A program made the position numbers and the translations under genes. Source: an uncultured Bacilli bacterium (lineage in GTDB: Bacteria > Bacillota_I > Bacilli_A > RF39 > UBA660). Taken from it: a stretch of 54,734 bases of DNA. How positions within the stretch are numbered: the first letter of the stretch is position 1; each line of letters opens with the position of its first letter. A model generated the notes under the pieces. The model did not search any database. It worked only from the letters and a program-made list of their open reading frames with translations, and was not told the origin of the DNA. Shown here one piece after another: positions 41,522-49,398 of this stretch. The DNA lies in the NCBI GenBank assembly GCA_947630865.1, contig CANRJE010000001.1, positions 1 through 54,734 on the forward strand. The letters are read 5' to 3'.

Positions 41522-41563
41522 ATTAACCCCCCTTAATAGTGCTACTATTATACCATAAAATCT

Positions 41564-45574: not shown

Positions 45575-45600
45575 TTGTCTCTCCTAAATCGGAGAGACAA
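45575..45600. terminator. perfect 10-bp hairpin downstream of the surface-protein gene
   Basis: TTGTCTCTCC-taaatc-GGAGAGACAA. The T-rich tract (TATTTTGTTG) follows on the plus strand only. On the minus strand it is followed by TCAAAATAAAATTT. Confidence 0.4.
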
Positions 45601-45662
45601 TATTTTGTTGAGATATCTTACTTCTTGCTTTATTATTCCCTTTACTTTATTCTTTATCGGGT

Positions 45663-45688
45663 CCCTCGAAGACGTTCCCTTCGTAGGG
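45663..45688 (-). other. GC-rich hairpin 6 nt after the stop codon of the 791-aa gene
   Basis: Gene-sense CCCTaCGAAG-ggaacgt-CTTCGAGGG (9 bp, one bulge). No U-tract follows. Confidence 0.5.
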
Positions 45689-45693
45689 ATATC

Positions 45694-48069
45694 TTACGCC
45701 TCCAAGATGTATGGGTCTGTGTCAGTCCCTGTCCCGGATTTAATCTTCACATGTGACCCCAGATTAAGGACTGGGAAGGCCCCCCCACCGCCAATCCAGC
45801 CGACGTATCTGGCCTCCACATAATTCCCGAAGTTCCAACCCATCACATTGCTGCTGCCGTCAGAAGAAGGGGCGAGCATCCACAAATATTTACTCTTTAC
45901 CTCCGGCATTGTTCTATACATCCAACTTGTATATCTTAAATGTTCGTAATCTCCAGAACCTAACGATGTATTCCAATATTGTTTATCTGCTGAGAATCCA
46001 TAGTCACTTGGATACATTAATGAAATACTTCCTTTCCAAGTGGCATCATTTCCATTCCATACATTACATCCTGATACAGGGAAATTTGATGAACTACTTG
46101 TTGTTCCTTTGTTATCTATACAATTTAATACATCTCTTTCGTGTTGGTATCCACTTACTGCTGTATCTGTAGCAATTATAAAACTTCCTAAATAATGTAT
46201 TCTTTCTTCTAATAAACTTTTTGTTGATTCACTTAAAAGTCTCATATAATATCCATTTAAATAATGTTGAAGCCCTGCTGTTGCCCAATCATTATTTGAT
46301 GTTCCACTGACTTTATTGTTCCAATATACATTTTCTCCAAAAGATATTTTATAGTCTATTCCATTAACTACTATTTCGCTAGTAAGAACATCGGCAGGTA
46401 ATGCTTCATTTCGAACTAATCTTATATACTTTTCTTTTGTTTCTTCGTCCGTAAATACTCCTATTATTCTCCATAATTCTTTTTGATTATTATTTGTTAA
46501 TTGAACATAATTTCTGACATATTCTCCTGTATATCTATATTCTTTGCAATTTGAATCACATACTGTTCCTTTCTCTGGATTTATTCCATATATTCCTTCA
46601 TATGCACTTGATACTTTTTGAATTAAATCATAAGTTGCTAAATATGTAACTCTAACAGAAAAAGTTGCAGAAATTTTATTATAAGAACTATCATCTGGTA
46701 TAAAGTTTATATTAATATTTGTATTTCCAAGAGAATGGCCTGTAACTGTAACCATCGTTTGATTTCCTTTACTTGGACTAACTATTGCTGTTGCTATTTC
46801 AGAACTATCAGATGTTACAGAAAATGTTCCTGATGTATTGGTATCTACATTAAATGCAGTTTGCTGATTTGGTGATACTTCACCACTTGTCCTACTTAAA
46901 TATATTTTTGTTTCTTTATCGCCAGTATCTTCATATACTAATTCATATGGTGTATCCAAACTTCCATTTCCTTTGGTAATCAAAACCATTGATTTTAAAG
47001 AAAGGGTTGCTCTTGCTCTATTACCATTGTAATTAGCATGATTATTATATAAATATCCTGTTTTACTCCATCTTGAAACATCATTAGTTAAAGTATATGT
47101 AACTGGTGATAAAAGCCATTCATGATTACTATGATTTGCAGCTTGCAACCAACTTGAATTAGCAACTGTTCCTTCAAATGTTCCATATCCTAATATTGTA
47201 TTCCAATATTGGCTATCAACACTATAACCTATATCACTTGGATATAATAATCCAACTTTACCTGTCCACGTTGCTGCCTTATCTGCCCATACTCGACACG
47301 TTTCATTTCCTACTACAGCACTTTGAGTACTATTACTACTTGGTCCTTTATTATCTTGGCATCCACTTACTGCTCTTTCATTTTTATAGGCTTCGCTTGG
47401 GTTATCCTTAATGTAAGATGTGTCATCATAAGTTACTGAACCTAAATAATATTTCGTATCAGCTATCATTGATTGATATTCTTCATCTATAGTTTCTAAA
47501 AAGCCTTCTCCCACTGCTCCTTCAGAGTTTAACCAGGCTTTTAATCCTGCTGTTGCCCAATCATTTGTATAGGTTGAACTATAATTATTCCAGTATACTA
47601 CACTTCCATTAGTAGATAAAGTATATGATGTACCATTTGCTGTAAAAGTAGTTGGTACTCCTGTTAAAGTTTCATTTTGCACTATTTTAACTGTTGTCTT
47701 TCCCCCATCTTTAAATACTCCTACTATTCTCCATAATTGATTATTAAACTTAACATAATTGTTAACATTCAAGCCTGAATATCTATATTCTCTTATATTT
47801 CCATTGTTAGTAGTTGTCATTTGATTATCTCTTGTAACTCCTACTACTCCTCCTTCTTGTCCAAGTGTATTTTGTACAACTTTAGCTAAAGAATTTTCTG
47901 GTAAGTCTTCAGGCATTTCTGATGCTGTATGTATCTCAACTACATTATCAAGCTTAACTGATGTTTGAAATAAAGAATATGATACATTTACTCCTATTGT
48001 TAAAACACTTATCAGTACTAATATTACTAAAATTTTCTTATTTACTGCTATTTCCTTTTTTAAATCCAT
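45694..48069 (-). CDS. large secreted/surface protein with an internally duplicated ~300-aa domain and a central Ig-like (Big_2-type) domain
   Basis: - 791 aa.
- The N-terminal anchor/signal ends in VSYSLFQT.
- The two repeats share motifs: EYRY(S/T)G..V.NYV, LWRI(V/I)GVF, YWNN, NDWATAGL, YYLGS/HYLGS, C.DNKG, ATW.G...L.YPSD.G(Y/F)S.D.QYWNT, W(L/M)L(S/A)P and D.PY.L.
- The middle segment SGTFSVTSDSSEIATAIV...VTVTGHSLGNTNI is Big_2-like. Confidence 0.8.
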   Translation of the reverse strand: MDLKKEIAVNKKILVILVLISVLTIGVNVSYSLFQTSVKLDNVVEIHTASEMPEDLPENSLAKVVQNTLGQEGGVVGVTRDNQMTTTNNGNIREYRYSGLNVNNYVKFNNQLWRIVGVFKDGGKTTVKIVQNETLTGVPTTFTANGTSYTLSTNGSVVYWNNYSSTYTNDWATAGLKAWLNSEGAVGEGFLETIDEEYQSMIADTKYYLGSVTYDDTSYIKDNPSEAYKNERAVSGCQDNKGPSSNSTQSAVVGNETCRVWADKAATWTGKVGLLYPSDIGYSVDSQYWNTILGYGTFEGTVANSSWLQAANHSNHEWLLSPVTYTLTNDVSRWSKTGYLYNNHANYNGNRARATLSLKSMVLITKGNGSLDTPYELVYEDTGDKETKIYLSRTSGEVSPNQQTAFNVDTNTSGTFSVTSDSSEIATAIVSPSKGNQTMVTVTGHSLGNTNININFIPDDSSYNKISATFSVRVTYLATYDLIQKVSSAYEGIYGINPEKGTVCDSNCKEYRYTGEYVRNYVQLTNNNQKELWRIIGVFTDEETKEKYIRLVRNEALPADVLTSEIVVNGIDYKISFGENVYWNNKVSGTSNNDWATAGLQHYLNGYYMRLLSESTKSLLEERIHYLGSFIIATDTAVSGYQHERDVLNCIDNKGTTSSSSNFPVSGCNVWNGNDATWKGSISLMYPSDYGFSADKQYWNTSLGSGDYEHLRYTSWMYRTMPEVKSKYLWMLAPSSDGSSNVMGWNFGNYVEARYVGWIGGGGAFPVLNLGSHVKIKSGTGTDTDPYILEA

Positions 48070-48086
48070 ATTTTCACCTCCACATC

Positions 48087-48132
48087 AAAAAACACTTAAA
48101 AGACTTGGTCTAAGGACCAATCTCTTAAGTGT
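48087..48132 (-). terminator. intrinsic terminator inside the 5-prime leader of the 791-aa gene
   Basis: Minus strand reads ACACTTAAGAGATTGGTC-ctta-GACCAAGTCTTTTAAGTGT (about 17 bp) followed by T6. It ends 5 nt before the SD GGAGGTG. Confidence 0.6.
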
Positions 48133-48159
48133 TATAGTTTTATTATTTATATTTTTTAC

Positions 48160-48181
48160 CTTAGAAAATTTATTTTCTAAG
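48160..48181 (-). promoter_or_regulatory. perfect 9-bp hairpin starting at the uORF stop codon
   Basis: Minus strand reads CTTAGAAAA-taaa-TTTTCTAAG. The TAG within the first arm is the uORF stop. Confidence 0.5.
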
Positions 48182-48230
48182 CCCCCCCCATGGTTGACAA
48201 ATTGTTAACTTTTTTTAATAATTGACTCAT
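48177..48230 (-). CDS. candidate 17-codon leader ORF (uORF)
   Basis: GGAAGGAAG lies 7 nt upstream of the ATG. The peptide is MSQLLKKVNNLSTMGGA. Whether it is translated is unproven. Confidence 0.3.
   Translation of the reverse strand: MSQLLKKVNNLSTMGGA
48182..48189 (-). repeat. poly(G)8 homopolymer tract (C8 on the plus strand) inside the leader ORF
   Basis: Read directly from the sequence: g-cccccccc-a at 48181-48190. Confidence 0.95.
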
Positions 48231-48254
48231 CTTAAAACTTCCTTCCTATTATTA

Positions 48255-48282
48255 ATAGTATCATAATTTGGAATTTTTGCAA
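48255..48282 (-). promoter_or_regulatory. candidate promoter for the surface-protein leader
   Basis: Minus strand has TTGCAA, a 16-nt spacer, then TGaTACTAT (extended -10). Confidence 0.35.
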
Positions 48283-48322
48283 GTATTTTTCAAAAAAATT
48301 AAAGAAAAAGGCTTTATTTTAT

Positions 48323-48351
48323 TTGACTTTTAGAATTTATTATGTTAAAGT
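48323..48351 (+). promoter_or_regulatory. candidate promoter of rpmB
   Basis: TTGACT, a 17-nt spacer, then TGtTAAAGT. Confidence 0.4.
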
Positions 48352-48396
48352 TATAAAGCGAGATGTTTATGAATATAATGAAAAAGGAGTGAGAAT

Positions 48397-48594
48397 ATGG
48401 CAATTAAAGCAACTAGCAAAAAACCTATGTTTGGTAACAGAAGAAGTCATGCCTTAAATGCAACAAGACATATGCAAAAGTTAAATTTGCAAAATGTTAC
48501 CTTACCAGATGGTACTAAAGTTAAAGTATCAACTAGAGAAGCTAAAAAATACAGAAAAGATATTAAATCAAAAGAAGATAAAGTTACTGAATAA
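48397..48594 (+). CDS. rpmB: 50S ribosomal protein L28
   Basis: GNRRSHALNATRHMQKLNLQ matches the L28 core GNN.SHA.N.T.R....NLQ. SD is AAAGGAG. Confidence 0.85.
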   Translation: MAIKATSKKPMFGNRRSHALNATRHMQKLNLQNVTLPDGTKVKVSTREAKKYRKDIKSKEDKVTE

Positions 48595-48636
48595 TCTTCT
48601 TTTTTTTGTTTTTCTTCATATATTTAATTGAGGTCT

Positions 48637-49398
48637 ATGAAAAAAATATTCAATATAGTTCTAACAATTTTATTATTAACTTTTAGTTTTTACTATACTA
48701 GTCTTGTTTCTAACTATATTAAAGAAAAAGATCCAATTATGTTAAAAATTAAAGCAACTAGTTCAAAATATTCTAAAAAACCTAAAAATGCTATAATTAA
48801 GAATAATACAATTATTCCTGGAATAAATGGAATTGAAGTCAATATAGAGGAATCCTACTCCAAAATGAAAAAGGTTAATACTTATAATGAAAGTTTACTT
48901 GTTTTTAATGAAATAAAACCTAAACTATCAATTGATAATAATTTAGATAAAATAATTATAAGCGGTAATCCAAGTGAAAAAAATATTAGTATTATTTTAA
49001 AAACCAATAATCAAGATATATTAAATACATTTTTAGAATTAGATAATGAAAATATAAATTTTATTCTTACTAAAAATTTATATGATAGTAACTATGATAA
49101 TTTAAAAAACTTAAAAAATAATTTGATAAGTGATAGTAATTCATTAAATTCTCTAACTGATTATTGCTATACAACTAATATTAAAGGAAATAATACTTGT
49201 AAAGATAAGTTAATGATTGCCCCTACTTTTATAACTCATGATTATTATTTAAATACTATTAAAAATTTAGAAAATGGTTCTCTTTTAGCCTATAATGTTA
49301 TTACTTTGGAAAATGTTAAAGAAATAAATTTTATTTTAAATAACCTAAAAAACTTAGGATATAAAATTGTTAGTCTCGATGATTTAATAAAAGAATAA
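48637..49398 (+). CDS. hypothetical membrane-anchored protein (weak resemblance to polysaccharide-deacetylase-type sporulation proteins, catalytic motifs not seen)
   Basis: N-terminal TM helix. Contains IPGINGIEVNIEESY and the C-terminus GYKIVSLDDLI. No DD or HxxxH metal motifs are recognisable. Confidence 0.4.
   Translation: MKKIFNIVLTILLLTFSFYYTSLVSNYIKEKDPIMLKIKATSSKYSKKPKNAIIKNNTIIPGINGIEVNIEESYSKMKKVNTYNESLLVFNEIKPKLSIDNNLDKIIISGNPSEKNISIILKTNNQDILNTFLELDNENINFILTKNLYDSNYDNLKNLKNNLISDSNSLNSLTDYCYTTNIKGNNTCKDKLMIAPTFITHDYYLNTIKNLENGSLLAYNVITLENVKEINFILNNLKNLGYKIVSLDDLIKE

Follow-up and report, generated by a model that had tools for sequence, protein, structure and literature searches.

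A G tract in a leader open reading frame before an intrinsic terminator as a candidate contingency switch of a surface-protein family in uncultured gut Bacilli

Results

Leader of the 791-aa gene

The window analysed here is a stretch of 54,734 nt from an uncultured Bacilli bacterium, with a GC content of 25.3%. On its minus strand lies the gene of a 791-aa protein (45694..48069), which is proposed to be controlled by its leader. The protein has an N-terminal membrane anchor and an internally duplicated domain and is without known family; profile searches against Pfam, NCBIfam and PDB returned nothing usable. No other record of the exact protein was found, and the species appears once in the protein collection. 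By tblastn, 561 stretches of the protein's own family were confirmed in species-representative genomes, with members on at least 11 contigs of the metagenome-assembled genome (MAG) to which the window belongs and with hosts including rabbits, ruminants and humans.

An earlier note on this DNA had described a promoter, an upstream ORF (uORF), a run of eight G, a hairpin, a terminator and a Shine-Dalgarno (SD) sequence in the leader, and re-reading of the sequence confirmed all of them on the minus strand at their positions. The promoter (48255..48282) consists of the -35 element TTGCAA at 48282-48277, a 16-nt spacer and the extended -10 element TGaTACTAT, whose -10 hexamer lies at 48260-48255. 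The leader SD, AGGAAGGAAG (48238..48247), is placed 7 nt 5' of the ATG at 48230, from which the leader ORF as assembled (48177..48230) runs for 17 codons (MSQLLKKVNNLSTMGGA) to a TAG at 48179-48177. The G8 tract, which is the variable element, occupies 48182..48189. Directly 3' of it, a 9-bp hairpin (48160..48181; -7.4 kcal/mol, z = -3.9) includes the stop codon of this short form. The intrinsic terminator (48087..48133) is made of a stem of ~20 pairs at 48133-48093 and a U6 tract at 48092-48087; the stem had been described as ~17 bp and actually has about 19-20 pairs with one bulge. Its fold reached -22.6 kcal/mol with z = -7.25, and 0 of 200 shuffles were equally stable. The SD of the main gene, GGAGGTG (48075..48081), is followed by the main ATG at 48069.

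A further element, missed in the earlier note, abuts the G tract: an 11-bp-phased direct repeat, GTTAAC-AATTT-GTCAAC (48193..48209, minus strand), lies within the leader ORF and is conserved in all the homologous modules described below.

Folding of the whole leader gave just the two hairpins, and a competing antiterminator pairing of the trp or his type was seen neither in this fold nor on reading the other modules. The Rfam search of the whole window for riboswitches, T-boxes or known leaders gave zero matches at gathering thresholds. A permissive scan of 47900-48500 returned noise only (Hatchet, rox2 and snoR145), far under the gathering scores, the best match being Hatchet, whose 19.9 bits compare with a gathering score of 51.

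Tract length and reading frame of the leader ORF

As had been claimed, the run count showed that the G8 tract is the only G/C homopolymer of at least 8 nt in the window, followed by a 7-mer at 45780-45786 and a 6-mer at 41527. From the base counts, ~0.02 runs of 8 or more would be expected by chance in 54.7 kb. The tract contains the slippery heptamer G_GGG_GGG, a feature of -1 frameshift sites. A G8 run with a synonymous break reads GGTGGAGG.

When different tract lengths were simulated, G9 or G6 gave a uORF of 48 or 47 aa ending at the TGA at 48087-48085, and G7 or G10 added L-R-K only, the short leader forms having 17-19 codons. The outcomes for G9 and G7 had been read by hand before and proved right on recomputation, and the ~5% chance given for a 31-codon open stretch was about right as well (stop frequency ~0.10 per codon; 0.9^31 ~0.04). 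With one extra G, the leader ORF (48085..48230, minus strand) spans both hairpins and the U tract over 48 codons, and its stop lies 3 nt before the main SD. With G8, the stop lies 45 nt 5' of the terminator stem. From these frames, the 17-codon form is predicted to be OFF and the 48-codon form to be ON.

The same module precedes many family members

The same module was present upstream of at least 24 paralogues or orthologues of the 791-aa protein's family, in ~10 genomes of uncultured gut Bacilli. It was always on the gene's own strand and 5' of family members, which is weak evidence because every locus was fetched via family genes. Its layout comprises a strong promoter, an SD with a short ORF, the direct repeat, a tract of 7 to 11 G, a spacer (44-53 nt from tract to terminator in most loci) and a long-stem intrinsic terminator. 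Equivalent extended -10 promoters were found in the matching position in all homologous modules, and the leader SD and ATG were kept in all of them. In most loci a stop codon follows within 1-2 codons 3' of the tract. The 9-bp hairpin was indeed present at 48160-48181 in the window, but it is lineage-specific rather than a conserved part of the device, being retained in loci L093 and L096 and missing from most other modules.

The argument that exactly one frame is open at each locus was discarded as weak, some frame being stop-free in 32-62% of shuffled spacers, and a pre-specified frame was therefore tested instead. This frame was open in 13/13 sequence-diverse groups, with shuffle probabilities of 0.21-0.40 each and a product of ~10^-6.8. 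Conservation of the +1-G frame, on which the earlier note had staked its reading, thus held: 12 of the 13 homologous leaders of diverse sequence kept the frame open, and the thirteenth was already in it. The stop distances in 21 modules fell into two classes with none in between, as the long frame ended 0-3 nt before the stem, inside it or beyond it, and the other frames stopped 22-47 nt before it. L076, L079 and L087 fitted the same short and long geometry. L019 has two long frames instead of one, since loss of one G also gives a long frame there.

Proposed mechanism

We propose, with a probability of roughly 0.6, that this leader is a contingency switch made from a leader-ORF attenuator. A constitutive promoter would give a transcript with a short, well-initiated ORF that holds a hypermutable G tract, and slipped-strand replication errors that add or remove one G would change the frame of this ORF. 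In two of the frames, the ribosome would stop just past the tract, 22-47 nt before the strong intrinsic terminator; the terminator would then fold and transcription would end 5' of the 791-aa gene. This would be the OFF state, in which the window was assembled (G8). The third frame (G9 here) would take the ribosome to, into or through the 5' arm of the terminator, so that the hairpin is blocked, RNA polymerase continues and the surface-protein gene is made, which would be the ON state. Reinitiation may contribute in the window, where the long ORF ends so close to the main SD. The coupling to the main start codon suggested earlier fits some loci and does not fit others. We infer from the sequence that the leader ORF is translated, that transcription ends at the terminator, that ribosome position controls this step and that the tract switches within the population; expression would then follow tract length, through a translating ribosome that prevents termination.

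In Escherichia coli, insertion of one G cut the distance from a stop codon to the downstream terminator tR2 from 28 to 5 bp and lowered termination from ~90% to <10%, and stop-to-terminator distances above ~27-30 nt gave full termination (PMC4824070). The long-form gaps (0-3 nt or overlap) and the short-form gaps (22-47 nt) match these thresholds. The same study reported that, without a polymerase pause, ribosomes seldom catch up with RNA polymerase within the initial ~100 nt (PMC4824070). The leader ATG lies only 82-122 nt from the stem across the modules, which, measured against this catch-up limit, may speak against the switch. Transcription-translation coupling is weak in Bacillus subtilis, and this counts against it too.

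Tract length differs between near-identical sequences

Tract length was not invariant among relatives, and one-G differences were observed directly between near-identical sequences. Between L074 (G8) and L094 (G9), the extra G was the sole indel within the module over ~270 aligned nt, with one additional 2-nt indel 5' of the uORF start. A one-G difference was also found inside the same MAG between L039 (G8) and L095 (G9), and between the window (G8) and both L093 and L096 (G9). Three of the G9 alleles sit on contigs at 1.3-2.6x coverage, and they came from a search able to see long forms only. In other assemblies, 18 long-form leader peptides were annotated as genes; two of them (P0104 and P0109) match the G9 frame of the window and contain ..KKVNNLSTMGGGLENKFSKVKN... 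Same-locus alleles were sought in other samples, yielding three P0012 contigs without the module, and a metagenome scan with TTGTCAACCATGGGGGGG gave 4 chance matches on unrelated contigs of 40-62% GC. Taken together, these comparisons support the interpretation of the earlier note, that tract length may act as a switch.

By tract state, 17 loci (16 plus L019) were one G short, L018 and L093-L096 were in frame, and L087, L076 and L079 were one G long. Among the 21 species-representative modules, 17 were exactly one G short (L019 counted). This bias exceeds what would be expected of a free-running switch unless further assumptions are made, and the need for exactly one more G in so many modules also suits recoding at the RNA level, which we consider unlikely. 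The tract would then be held one G short, and RNA polymerase slippage or -1 frameshifting on G_GGG_GGG would give a graded read-through, replacing DNA switching or adding to it. Consistent with this, neighbouring changes preserve the total length (CAT+G8 vs CT+G9, TAC+G8 vs TC+G9, G8+TC vs G9+T), the stop follows within 1-2 codons of the tract in most loci, a significant hairpin immediately follows the tract in the window lineage and in L087, and ermCL under ketolides is a known case of a leader-ORF frame change that unfolds structure (PMC5009743). However, the frame relation is not fixed, given the five in-frame loci and the three that need one G fewer, and the genomic tract length itself differs between near-identical sequences. 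Tracts of G10 and G11, normally avoided by programmed frameshift sites, also exist, and around half of the modules have no downstream hairpin, which was significant in some lineages only. The homologues did not share the constant 0/-1 frame relation, together with a conserved stimulator 5-9 nt downstream, that marks a programmed -1 site.

Terminators and second promoters

Homologous terminators were found in all modules, with z from -4.7 to -8.6, and their stems are held by two-sided compensatory changes (apical GGUC/GACC vs UUGGUAA/UUACCAA vs ACAGA/UCUGU). RNAalifold predicted zero pairs on the MAFFT alignment of the terminators because this alignment is not structure-aware, and single-sequence folds with stem-by-stem comparison were used in its place. 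The terminator adjoins the SD of the large gene in the window and in L016, L026, L039, L042, L072 and L087. In ~8 modules, about a third, a canonical promoter lies between the terminator and the gene, and thus the switch cannot be the sole control at those loci.

This second promoter would also be expected if the leader ORF were an independent gene for a phase-variable protein of 34-58 aa, with a terminator that merely ends it and a large gene expressed independently. In those ~8 modules the terminator loop contains the end of the long ORF, an arrangement often seen in ordinary small genes; 18 such proteins were predicted by gene callers, and a C-terminal ..RH(I/R)(E/K)(L/V)V.. motif is common to many of them. 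We regard this explanation as quite improbable, since there is no room for a promoter at the seven loci just named, where the terminator abuts the SD, past the tract the groups show no conservation in peptide sequence, and it is the conserved base of the terminator stem that encodes the C-terminal motif. The position of the module 5' of family members in every fetched locus points the same way, weakly, the loci having been fetched through family genes.

The direct repeat

The switch model assigns no function to the conserved direct repeat beside the tract. Constraint at the peptide level was rejected, as the conserved sites include third codon positions under varying amino acids, and an RNA hairpin formed by the repeat was rejected too, as the repeats in the distant modules L072 and L076 are all direct and none is inverted. 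The repeat is conserved as nucleic acid, without codon periodicity.

That the repeat is a -35 or response-regulator box and the G tract a spacer to a -10-like TAnnnT, whose length tunes initiation, is the least probable of the explanations considered and a very doubtful one: TTGTCA-17-GAAAAT spans the tract in the window with 9/12 matches, the repeat has 11-bp phasing, TTnACA-like units and the conservation just described, the second repeat and the first TA past the tract are a constant 10-11 nt apart, and the sister subfamily L088 uses TTGACA-ACC-G10 as a plain promoter spacer, but tract-spanning promoters score just 7-9/12 in most modules, the invariant A2 or T6 is usually missing from their -10 hexamers, which vary by locus, transcription starting there would meet a strong terminator after ~35 nt without an opposing ribosome, and the conserved upstream promoter, SD, ATG and terminator-reaching open frame would be left unexplained. 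Conserved -35/-10 hexamers 16-18 nt apart flanking the tract were not found among the homologues and occurred in L088 only. In L088, which is without uORF and terminator, the G10 tract is followed by TGTTT and TATATAAT, with 18-nt spacing.

Discussion

We rate the proposed contingency switch as a combination of two known kinds, the repeat contingency locus and the leader-ORF attenuator. No precedent for a switch of poly-G, uORF and terminator was found in the literature. On balance, we incline to see here an undescribed class of contingency switch, in which the length of a hypermutable homopolymer in a leader ORF would decide how close to an intrinsic terminator translation ends, so that a replication slip of one base becomes a heritable on/off state of transcription. 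Placed before dozens of paralogues, it would give combinatorial surface variation.

Poly-G/C contingency loci are known in Campylobacter, Neisseria and Haemophilus (reviews PMC6321876, PMC5953494). Like SSR contingency loci, the present ones have a G/C run of at least 8 in an AT-rich genome, before or within surface-structure genes, with single-unit differences between close relatives and many loci per genome; the repeat is of hypermutable length, a unit change alters the frame (24 modules), and the length differs with the same flanks. In SSR contingency loci the tract lies in the frame of the structural gene or in a promoter spacer, whereas the present tract belongs to a leader ORF distinct from the structural gene and is proposed to act through transcription termination.

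As in leader attenuators, the structural gene is preceded by a short ORF close to the promoter, which has its own ribosome-binding site, and by an intrinsic terminator. In pyrBI-type attenuation, the short leader ORF likewise overlaps or abuts the intrinsic terminator and no antiterminator is needed; its principle, that a ribosome close behind the polymerase blocks hairpin folding, is the one proposed here. Classical attenuators sense a metabolite via the speed of ribosome or polymerase, whereas the input here would be a heritable frameshift.

Among Firmicutes, cwpV of Clostridioides difficile similarly encodes a phase-variable large cell-wall protein with a promoter 5' of the switch, and an intrinsic terminator is proposed to form in its leader when the switch is OFF (PMC2784873). 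That switch works by recombinase-driven, site-specific inversion of a 195-bp element (PMC2784873), in contrast to the homopolymer and uORF here, and flanking inverted repeats or inversion of the cwpV type were not found at the present locus. In the ermC leader ORF with ketolide, a frame change lets ribosomes enter the spacer, unfold RNA and activate the downstream gene (PMC5009743). The ermC shift is made by ribosomes under the drug and affects translation initiation, whereas the shift proposed here would be (mainly) genomic and stochastic and would act on a terminator.

Promoter-spacer homopolymer switches include the poly-C of Bordetella fim, Neisseria porA/opc and Mycoplasma vlp. They resemble our modules in having a homopolymer beside a -35-like or activator-box-like repeat, and L088 has exactly that layout; unlike in those switches, the hexamers at 16-18 nt in our modules are poor and inconsistent, and the tract lies inside an ORF that is followed by a terminator. 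In siaD of Neisseria meningitidis, homopolymer slippage causes a premature translation stop and then downstream transcription termination. The polarity in siaD is a Rho-dependent side effect in a structural gene, whereas the leader ORF and intrinsic terminator here are dedicated, compact and conserved.

If true, the proposed switch would be a third route from slippage to expression besides structural-gene frameshift and promoter spacing, namely a leader ORF that gates a terminator. The structural gene would stay intact and be silenced at the RNA level, so that no truncated protein is made, and intrinsic terminators would be under ribosome-dependent control in a Firmicute lineage, where coupling is thought to be weak. 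With the device before many paralogues, each cell lineage could show a different subset of the family. Uncultured small-genome gut Bacilli would then possess a large, Mycoplasma-like phase-variable surface repertoire that has so far gone unnoticed and that bears on evasion of host immunity or phages. Caution would also be needed in MAG annotation, as consensus sequences would systematically mis-state which family genes are expressed.

Paralogues in which the tract is interrupted are fixed, which also fits the proposed switch. The leader ORF of L003 is in frame and ends 3 nt short of the terminator, and the module at L001:3083-3215 lies 5' of a decayed gene.

Anatomy of the leader

Every feature that the earlier note had described in the leader of the 791-aa gene was recovered on the minus strand at the same coordinates. 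On this strand, the leader promoter (48282-48255; TTGCAA, 16 nt, TGaTACTAT) is followed by an SD (AGGAAGGAAG, 48247-48238) and by a uORF running from ATG 48230 to TAG 48179-48177, which encodes MSQLLKKVNNLSTMGGA and contains the G8 tract (48189-48182). Downstream are a 9-bp hairpin (48181-48160; -7.4 kcal/mol, z = -3.9) and a terminator with its stem at 48133-48093 and U6 at 48092-48087 (-22.6 kcal/mol, z = -7.25; 0/200 shuffles equally stable), and the main gene has its SD, GGAGGTG, at 48081-48075 and its ATG at 48069. A run count confirmed G8 as the sole G/C run of at least 8 in the window, where GC content is 25.3% and the base counts predict ~0.02 such runs by chance. The divergent neighbour of the gene is rpmB, and the minus-strand terminator cannot be that of an upstream gene; scanning the window against Rfam gave no matching family.

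The frame effect proposed for tract length also held. G9 gives a 48-codon ORF stopping at TGA 48087-48085, 3 nt upstream of the main SD, and G6 gives a 47-codon uORF with the same end; with G7, and likewise G10, three codons are added to the uORF. A uORF reaching the terminator is called here the long form (predicted ON), and one stopping soon after the tract the short form (predicted OFF).

A module shared by the gene family

The 791-aa product has a hydrophobic anchor at its N-terminus and an internal duplication; it had no match in Pfam, NCBIfam or PDB, and is therefore only a putative surface protein. Its closest relatives (35-38% identity) are paralogues carried by further contigs of a single rabbit-gut MAG, "uncultured Bacilli bacterium Lapin-027__bin5" (GCA_947629135.1). 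Scanning species-representative genomes confirmed 561 family stretches; the 79 family loci retained (numbered L) are mostly from rabbit MAGs, and the remainder are from MAGs of roe deer, rumen and Hadza humans and from "Mycoplasma sp. CAG:611".

The paralogue leaders have a common architecture of extended -10 promoter, AGGAAGG-type SD, small ORF, long-stem terminator, SD and gene. The fetched loci hold 23 G/C runs of at least 7, all of them G on the strand of the gene, and nearly all lie within one motif, GTTRAC-N5-GTYAAC-N2-3-G(8-11)-TA... When aligned on the tract, 18 loci carry the full module, with 44-53 nt between tract and terminator stem; two paralogues from the same genome, L028 and L037, have plain promoters without it. 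The terminator hairpins are each strong (z -4.7 to -8.6), and stem-by-stem comparison showed that their sequences diverge while pairing is kept: apical stems include GGUC/GACC, UUGGUAA/UUACCAA, ACAGA/UCUGU and AGUAUAGU/GCUAUACU, with C-G as the outermost pair in 9 loci and G-C in 6. G7-G9 runs beyond the standard module were seen at L046:582-589, apparently in a membrane-protein coding region, at L077:2467-2475, 3' of a family gene, and at L068:265-271, in a divergent uORF that carries the repeat TGTCAAA-TAAG-TGTCGAA and lacks a clear terminator.

A module profile gave one match in the window (48217-48087) and matched decayed copies as well. At L001:3083-3215 an interrupted tract, GGGTGGG, stands ahead of a truncated family gene, and at L003:3826-3930 GTGGGTGGA lies in an uninterrupted in-frame 34-codon uORF that stops 3 nt before the terminator; these two modules are fixed versions of the switch. 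The L003 uORF was called as a gene (P0110), and the truncation behind the L001 module (L001:3083-3360) is a frameshift in an A run.

In about 8 modules a second promoter, TTGAAA-N17-TATAAT, lies between terminator and gene. Loci with it (L009, L018, L074, L094, L022, L013, L031, L032, L093) have a recurring 5' leader motif after the promoter, TAGAATAG(A/T)GGGAC or GGGGCAA, and in all of them the long uORF ends within the terminator loop.

Tract length, reading frame and terminator geometry

The uORF stop was computed for n-1, n and n+1 G in 21 loci. All short frames stopped 22-47 nt from the terminator stem, and all long frames left a gap of 0-3 nt or stopped inside or beyond the hairpin; gaps of 4-21 nt were absent from the 21 loci, making the distribution bimodal, and L087, L076 and L079 have the same geometry. 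A stop-free frame of some kind across a 45-50-nt AT-rich spacer arises in 32-62% of shuffles and is thus not rare, so a pre-specified frame was tested instead. It was open in 13/13 sequence-diverse groups, whose spacers are barely alignable; the shuffle probabilities of 0.21-0.40 each give a product of ~10^-6.8, in which independence is overstated as the groups share ancestry. In 12/13 groups this is the frame given by one extra G, whose conservation as open had been put forward as a check in the earlier note.

Variation in tract length across relatives, the other comparison proposed there, was found in three sets of near-identical sequences differing by one G. Since this species is present only once in the protein collection, long-form leader peptides called elsewhere were sought with a profile of long forms (E-values up to 0.04), which yielded 18 small proteins (34-58 aa); this search sees long forms only, so state frequencies are not readable from it. 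Two of the proteins, P0104 (..LKKVNNLSTMGGGLENKFSKVKN..) and P0109, match the G9 frame of the window. Between L074 (a MAG, G8) and L094 (another rabbit sample, G9) the G is the sole within-module indel over ~270 aligned nt. L039 (G8) and L095 (G9), both copies from the same MAG, are identical from repeat to terminator except for three substitutions. The window (G8) is identical to L093 (G9) over 69 nt around the tract and differs from L096 (G9) by three substitutions there; L093, L094 and L096 are contigs with 1.3-2.6x coverage.

The assembled state is one G short of the long frame in 17 loci (16 plus L019, where removing one G also reaches it), in frame in L018 and L093-L096, and one G too long in L087, L076 and L079. 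The strong bias towards one G short, together with tract edges that change without a change in length (e.g. CAT+G8 vs CT+G9), would also fit recoding at the RNA level, by polymerase slippage or -1 frameshifting on G_GGG_GGG. However, in-frame and one-G-long alleles both occur, the one-G differences exist in genomic DNA, some tracts reach G10-11, and the modules share no conserved stimulator. Such recoding may form an additional layer.

Proposed mechanism

As anatomy and as an evolutionary fact the device is well supported; its mechanism we infer: expression would depend on where the leader ribosome stops, at a distance from the terminator or right on it, a rule that fits the anatomy. In E. coli, where this distance rule was measured, termination is ~90% efficient with the stop more than ~27-30 nt away, and a single G insert that shortened the distance of the stop from 28 bp to 5 bp lowered termination from ~90% to <10% (PMC4824070). 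Within the first ~100 nt ribosomes rarely catch up with the polymerase, except where it pauses, as in pyrBI (PMC4824070). The uORF ATG lies 82-122 nt from the terminator stem across modules, so a polymerase pause may be needed for the ribosome to reach the terminator. The post-tract hairpin of the window lineage, which is not general among modules, is a possible source of the pause. The long ORF of L042 overlaps the main start, and reinitiation at the main gene could contribute only there and in the window. Transcription-translation coupling is weak in Bacillus subtilis, and weak coupling is the main mechanistic risk for the terminator-gating reading.

The components, contingency loci and leader-ORF attenuation, are already known. 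C. difficile cwpV is also a terminator-based phase switch, but it works via DNA inversion (PMC2784873), and the ermC leader likewise uses a frame change, but a drug-induced one (PMC5009743). Our literature search found neither a homopolymer in a leader ORF gating an intrinsic terminator nor a report of phase variation for this group of bacteria.

The direct repeat beside the tract

The G tract adjoins an 11-bp-phased direct repeat, GTTAAC-AATTT-GTCAAC (48193-48209, minus strand), which we take to resemble OmpR/PhoB-type boxes. It is kept in every module, as TTGACA twice in L072 and TTTACA twice in L076 and L079. Its conservation is not codon-periodic but a nucleic-acid-level pattern, and it has codons ending in C in a gene with a GC3 of 0.12, so the repeat must be read as nucleic acid. 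On the plus strand, 48194-48222 forms a near-consensus sigma-70-like site (TTGACA-17-AATAAT, 11/12 matches), antisense to the leader ORF and directed at rpmB, that arises from the palindromic character of the repeat; it is absent from L039, the one other module inspected by eye, and is therefore probably incidental.

A phased repeat beside the tract, like -35 or response-regulator boxes, might also suggest that tract length sets the spacing of a promoter, and the sister subfamily L088 indeed has TTGACA-ACC-G10-TGTTT-TATATAAT as a plain promoter without uORF or terminator. In window-type modules, however, tract-spanning promoters reach only 7-9/12 with inconsistent hexamers, and a promoter over the tract would fire directly into the terminator. 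G tracts thus apparently serve two different architectures within the gene family. In L088:1430-1475 (ENA contig_28109, 838-aa subfamily) the promoter-spacer G10 lies ~45 nt before the ATG. That the uORF is an independent small gene is plausible only for modules with the second promoter, and the peptide after the tract is not conserved between groups.

Other features of the window

The last ~100 codons and 3' UTR of the 791-aa gene (45694-48069, minus strand) form an island at 45600-45950 with 45-53% GC (genome 25%) and a GC3 of 0.52, vs 0.12 in the rest of the gene. It holds the second-longest G run of the window (G7, 45780-45786) and matched none of the fetched loci at the nucleotide level; it may derive from foreign DNA or gene conversion, or be an assembly chimera. 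The plus strand is strongly skewed (C 8733 vs G 5102), in keeping with the minus-strand position of most genes. A ylxY/pdaA-like sporulation-related gene lies near the leader (48628-49398), and GPR and SpoVIF, also sporulation-related, are on the paralogue contig L001; these genes mark the organism as a spore-former rather than a true mollicute.
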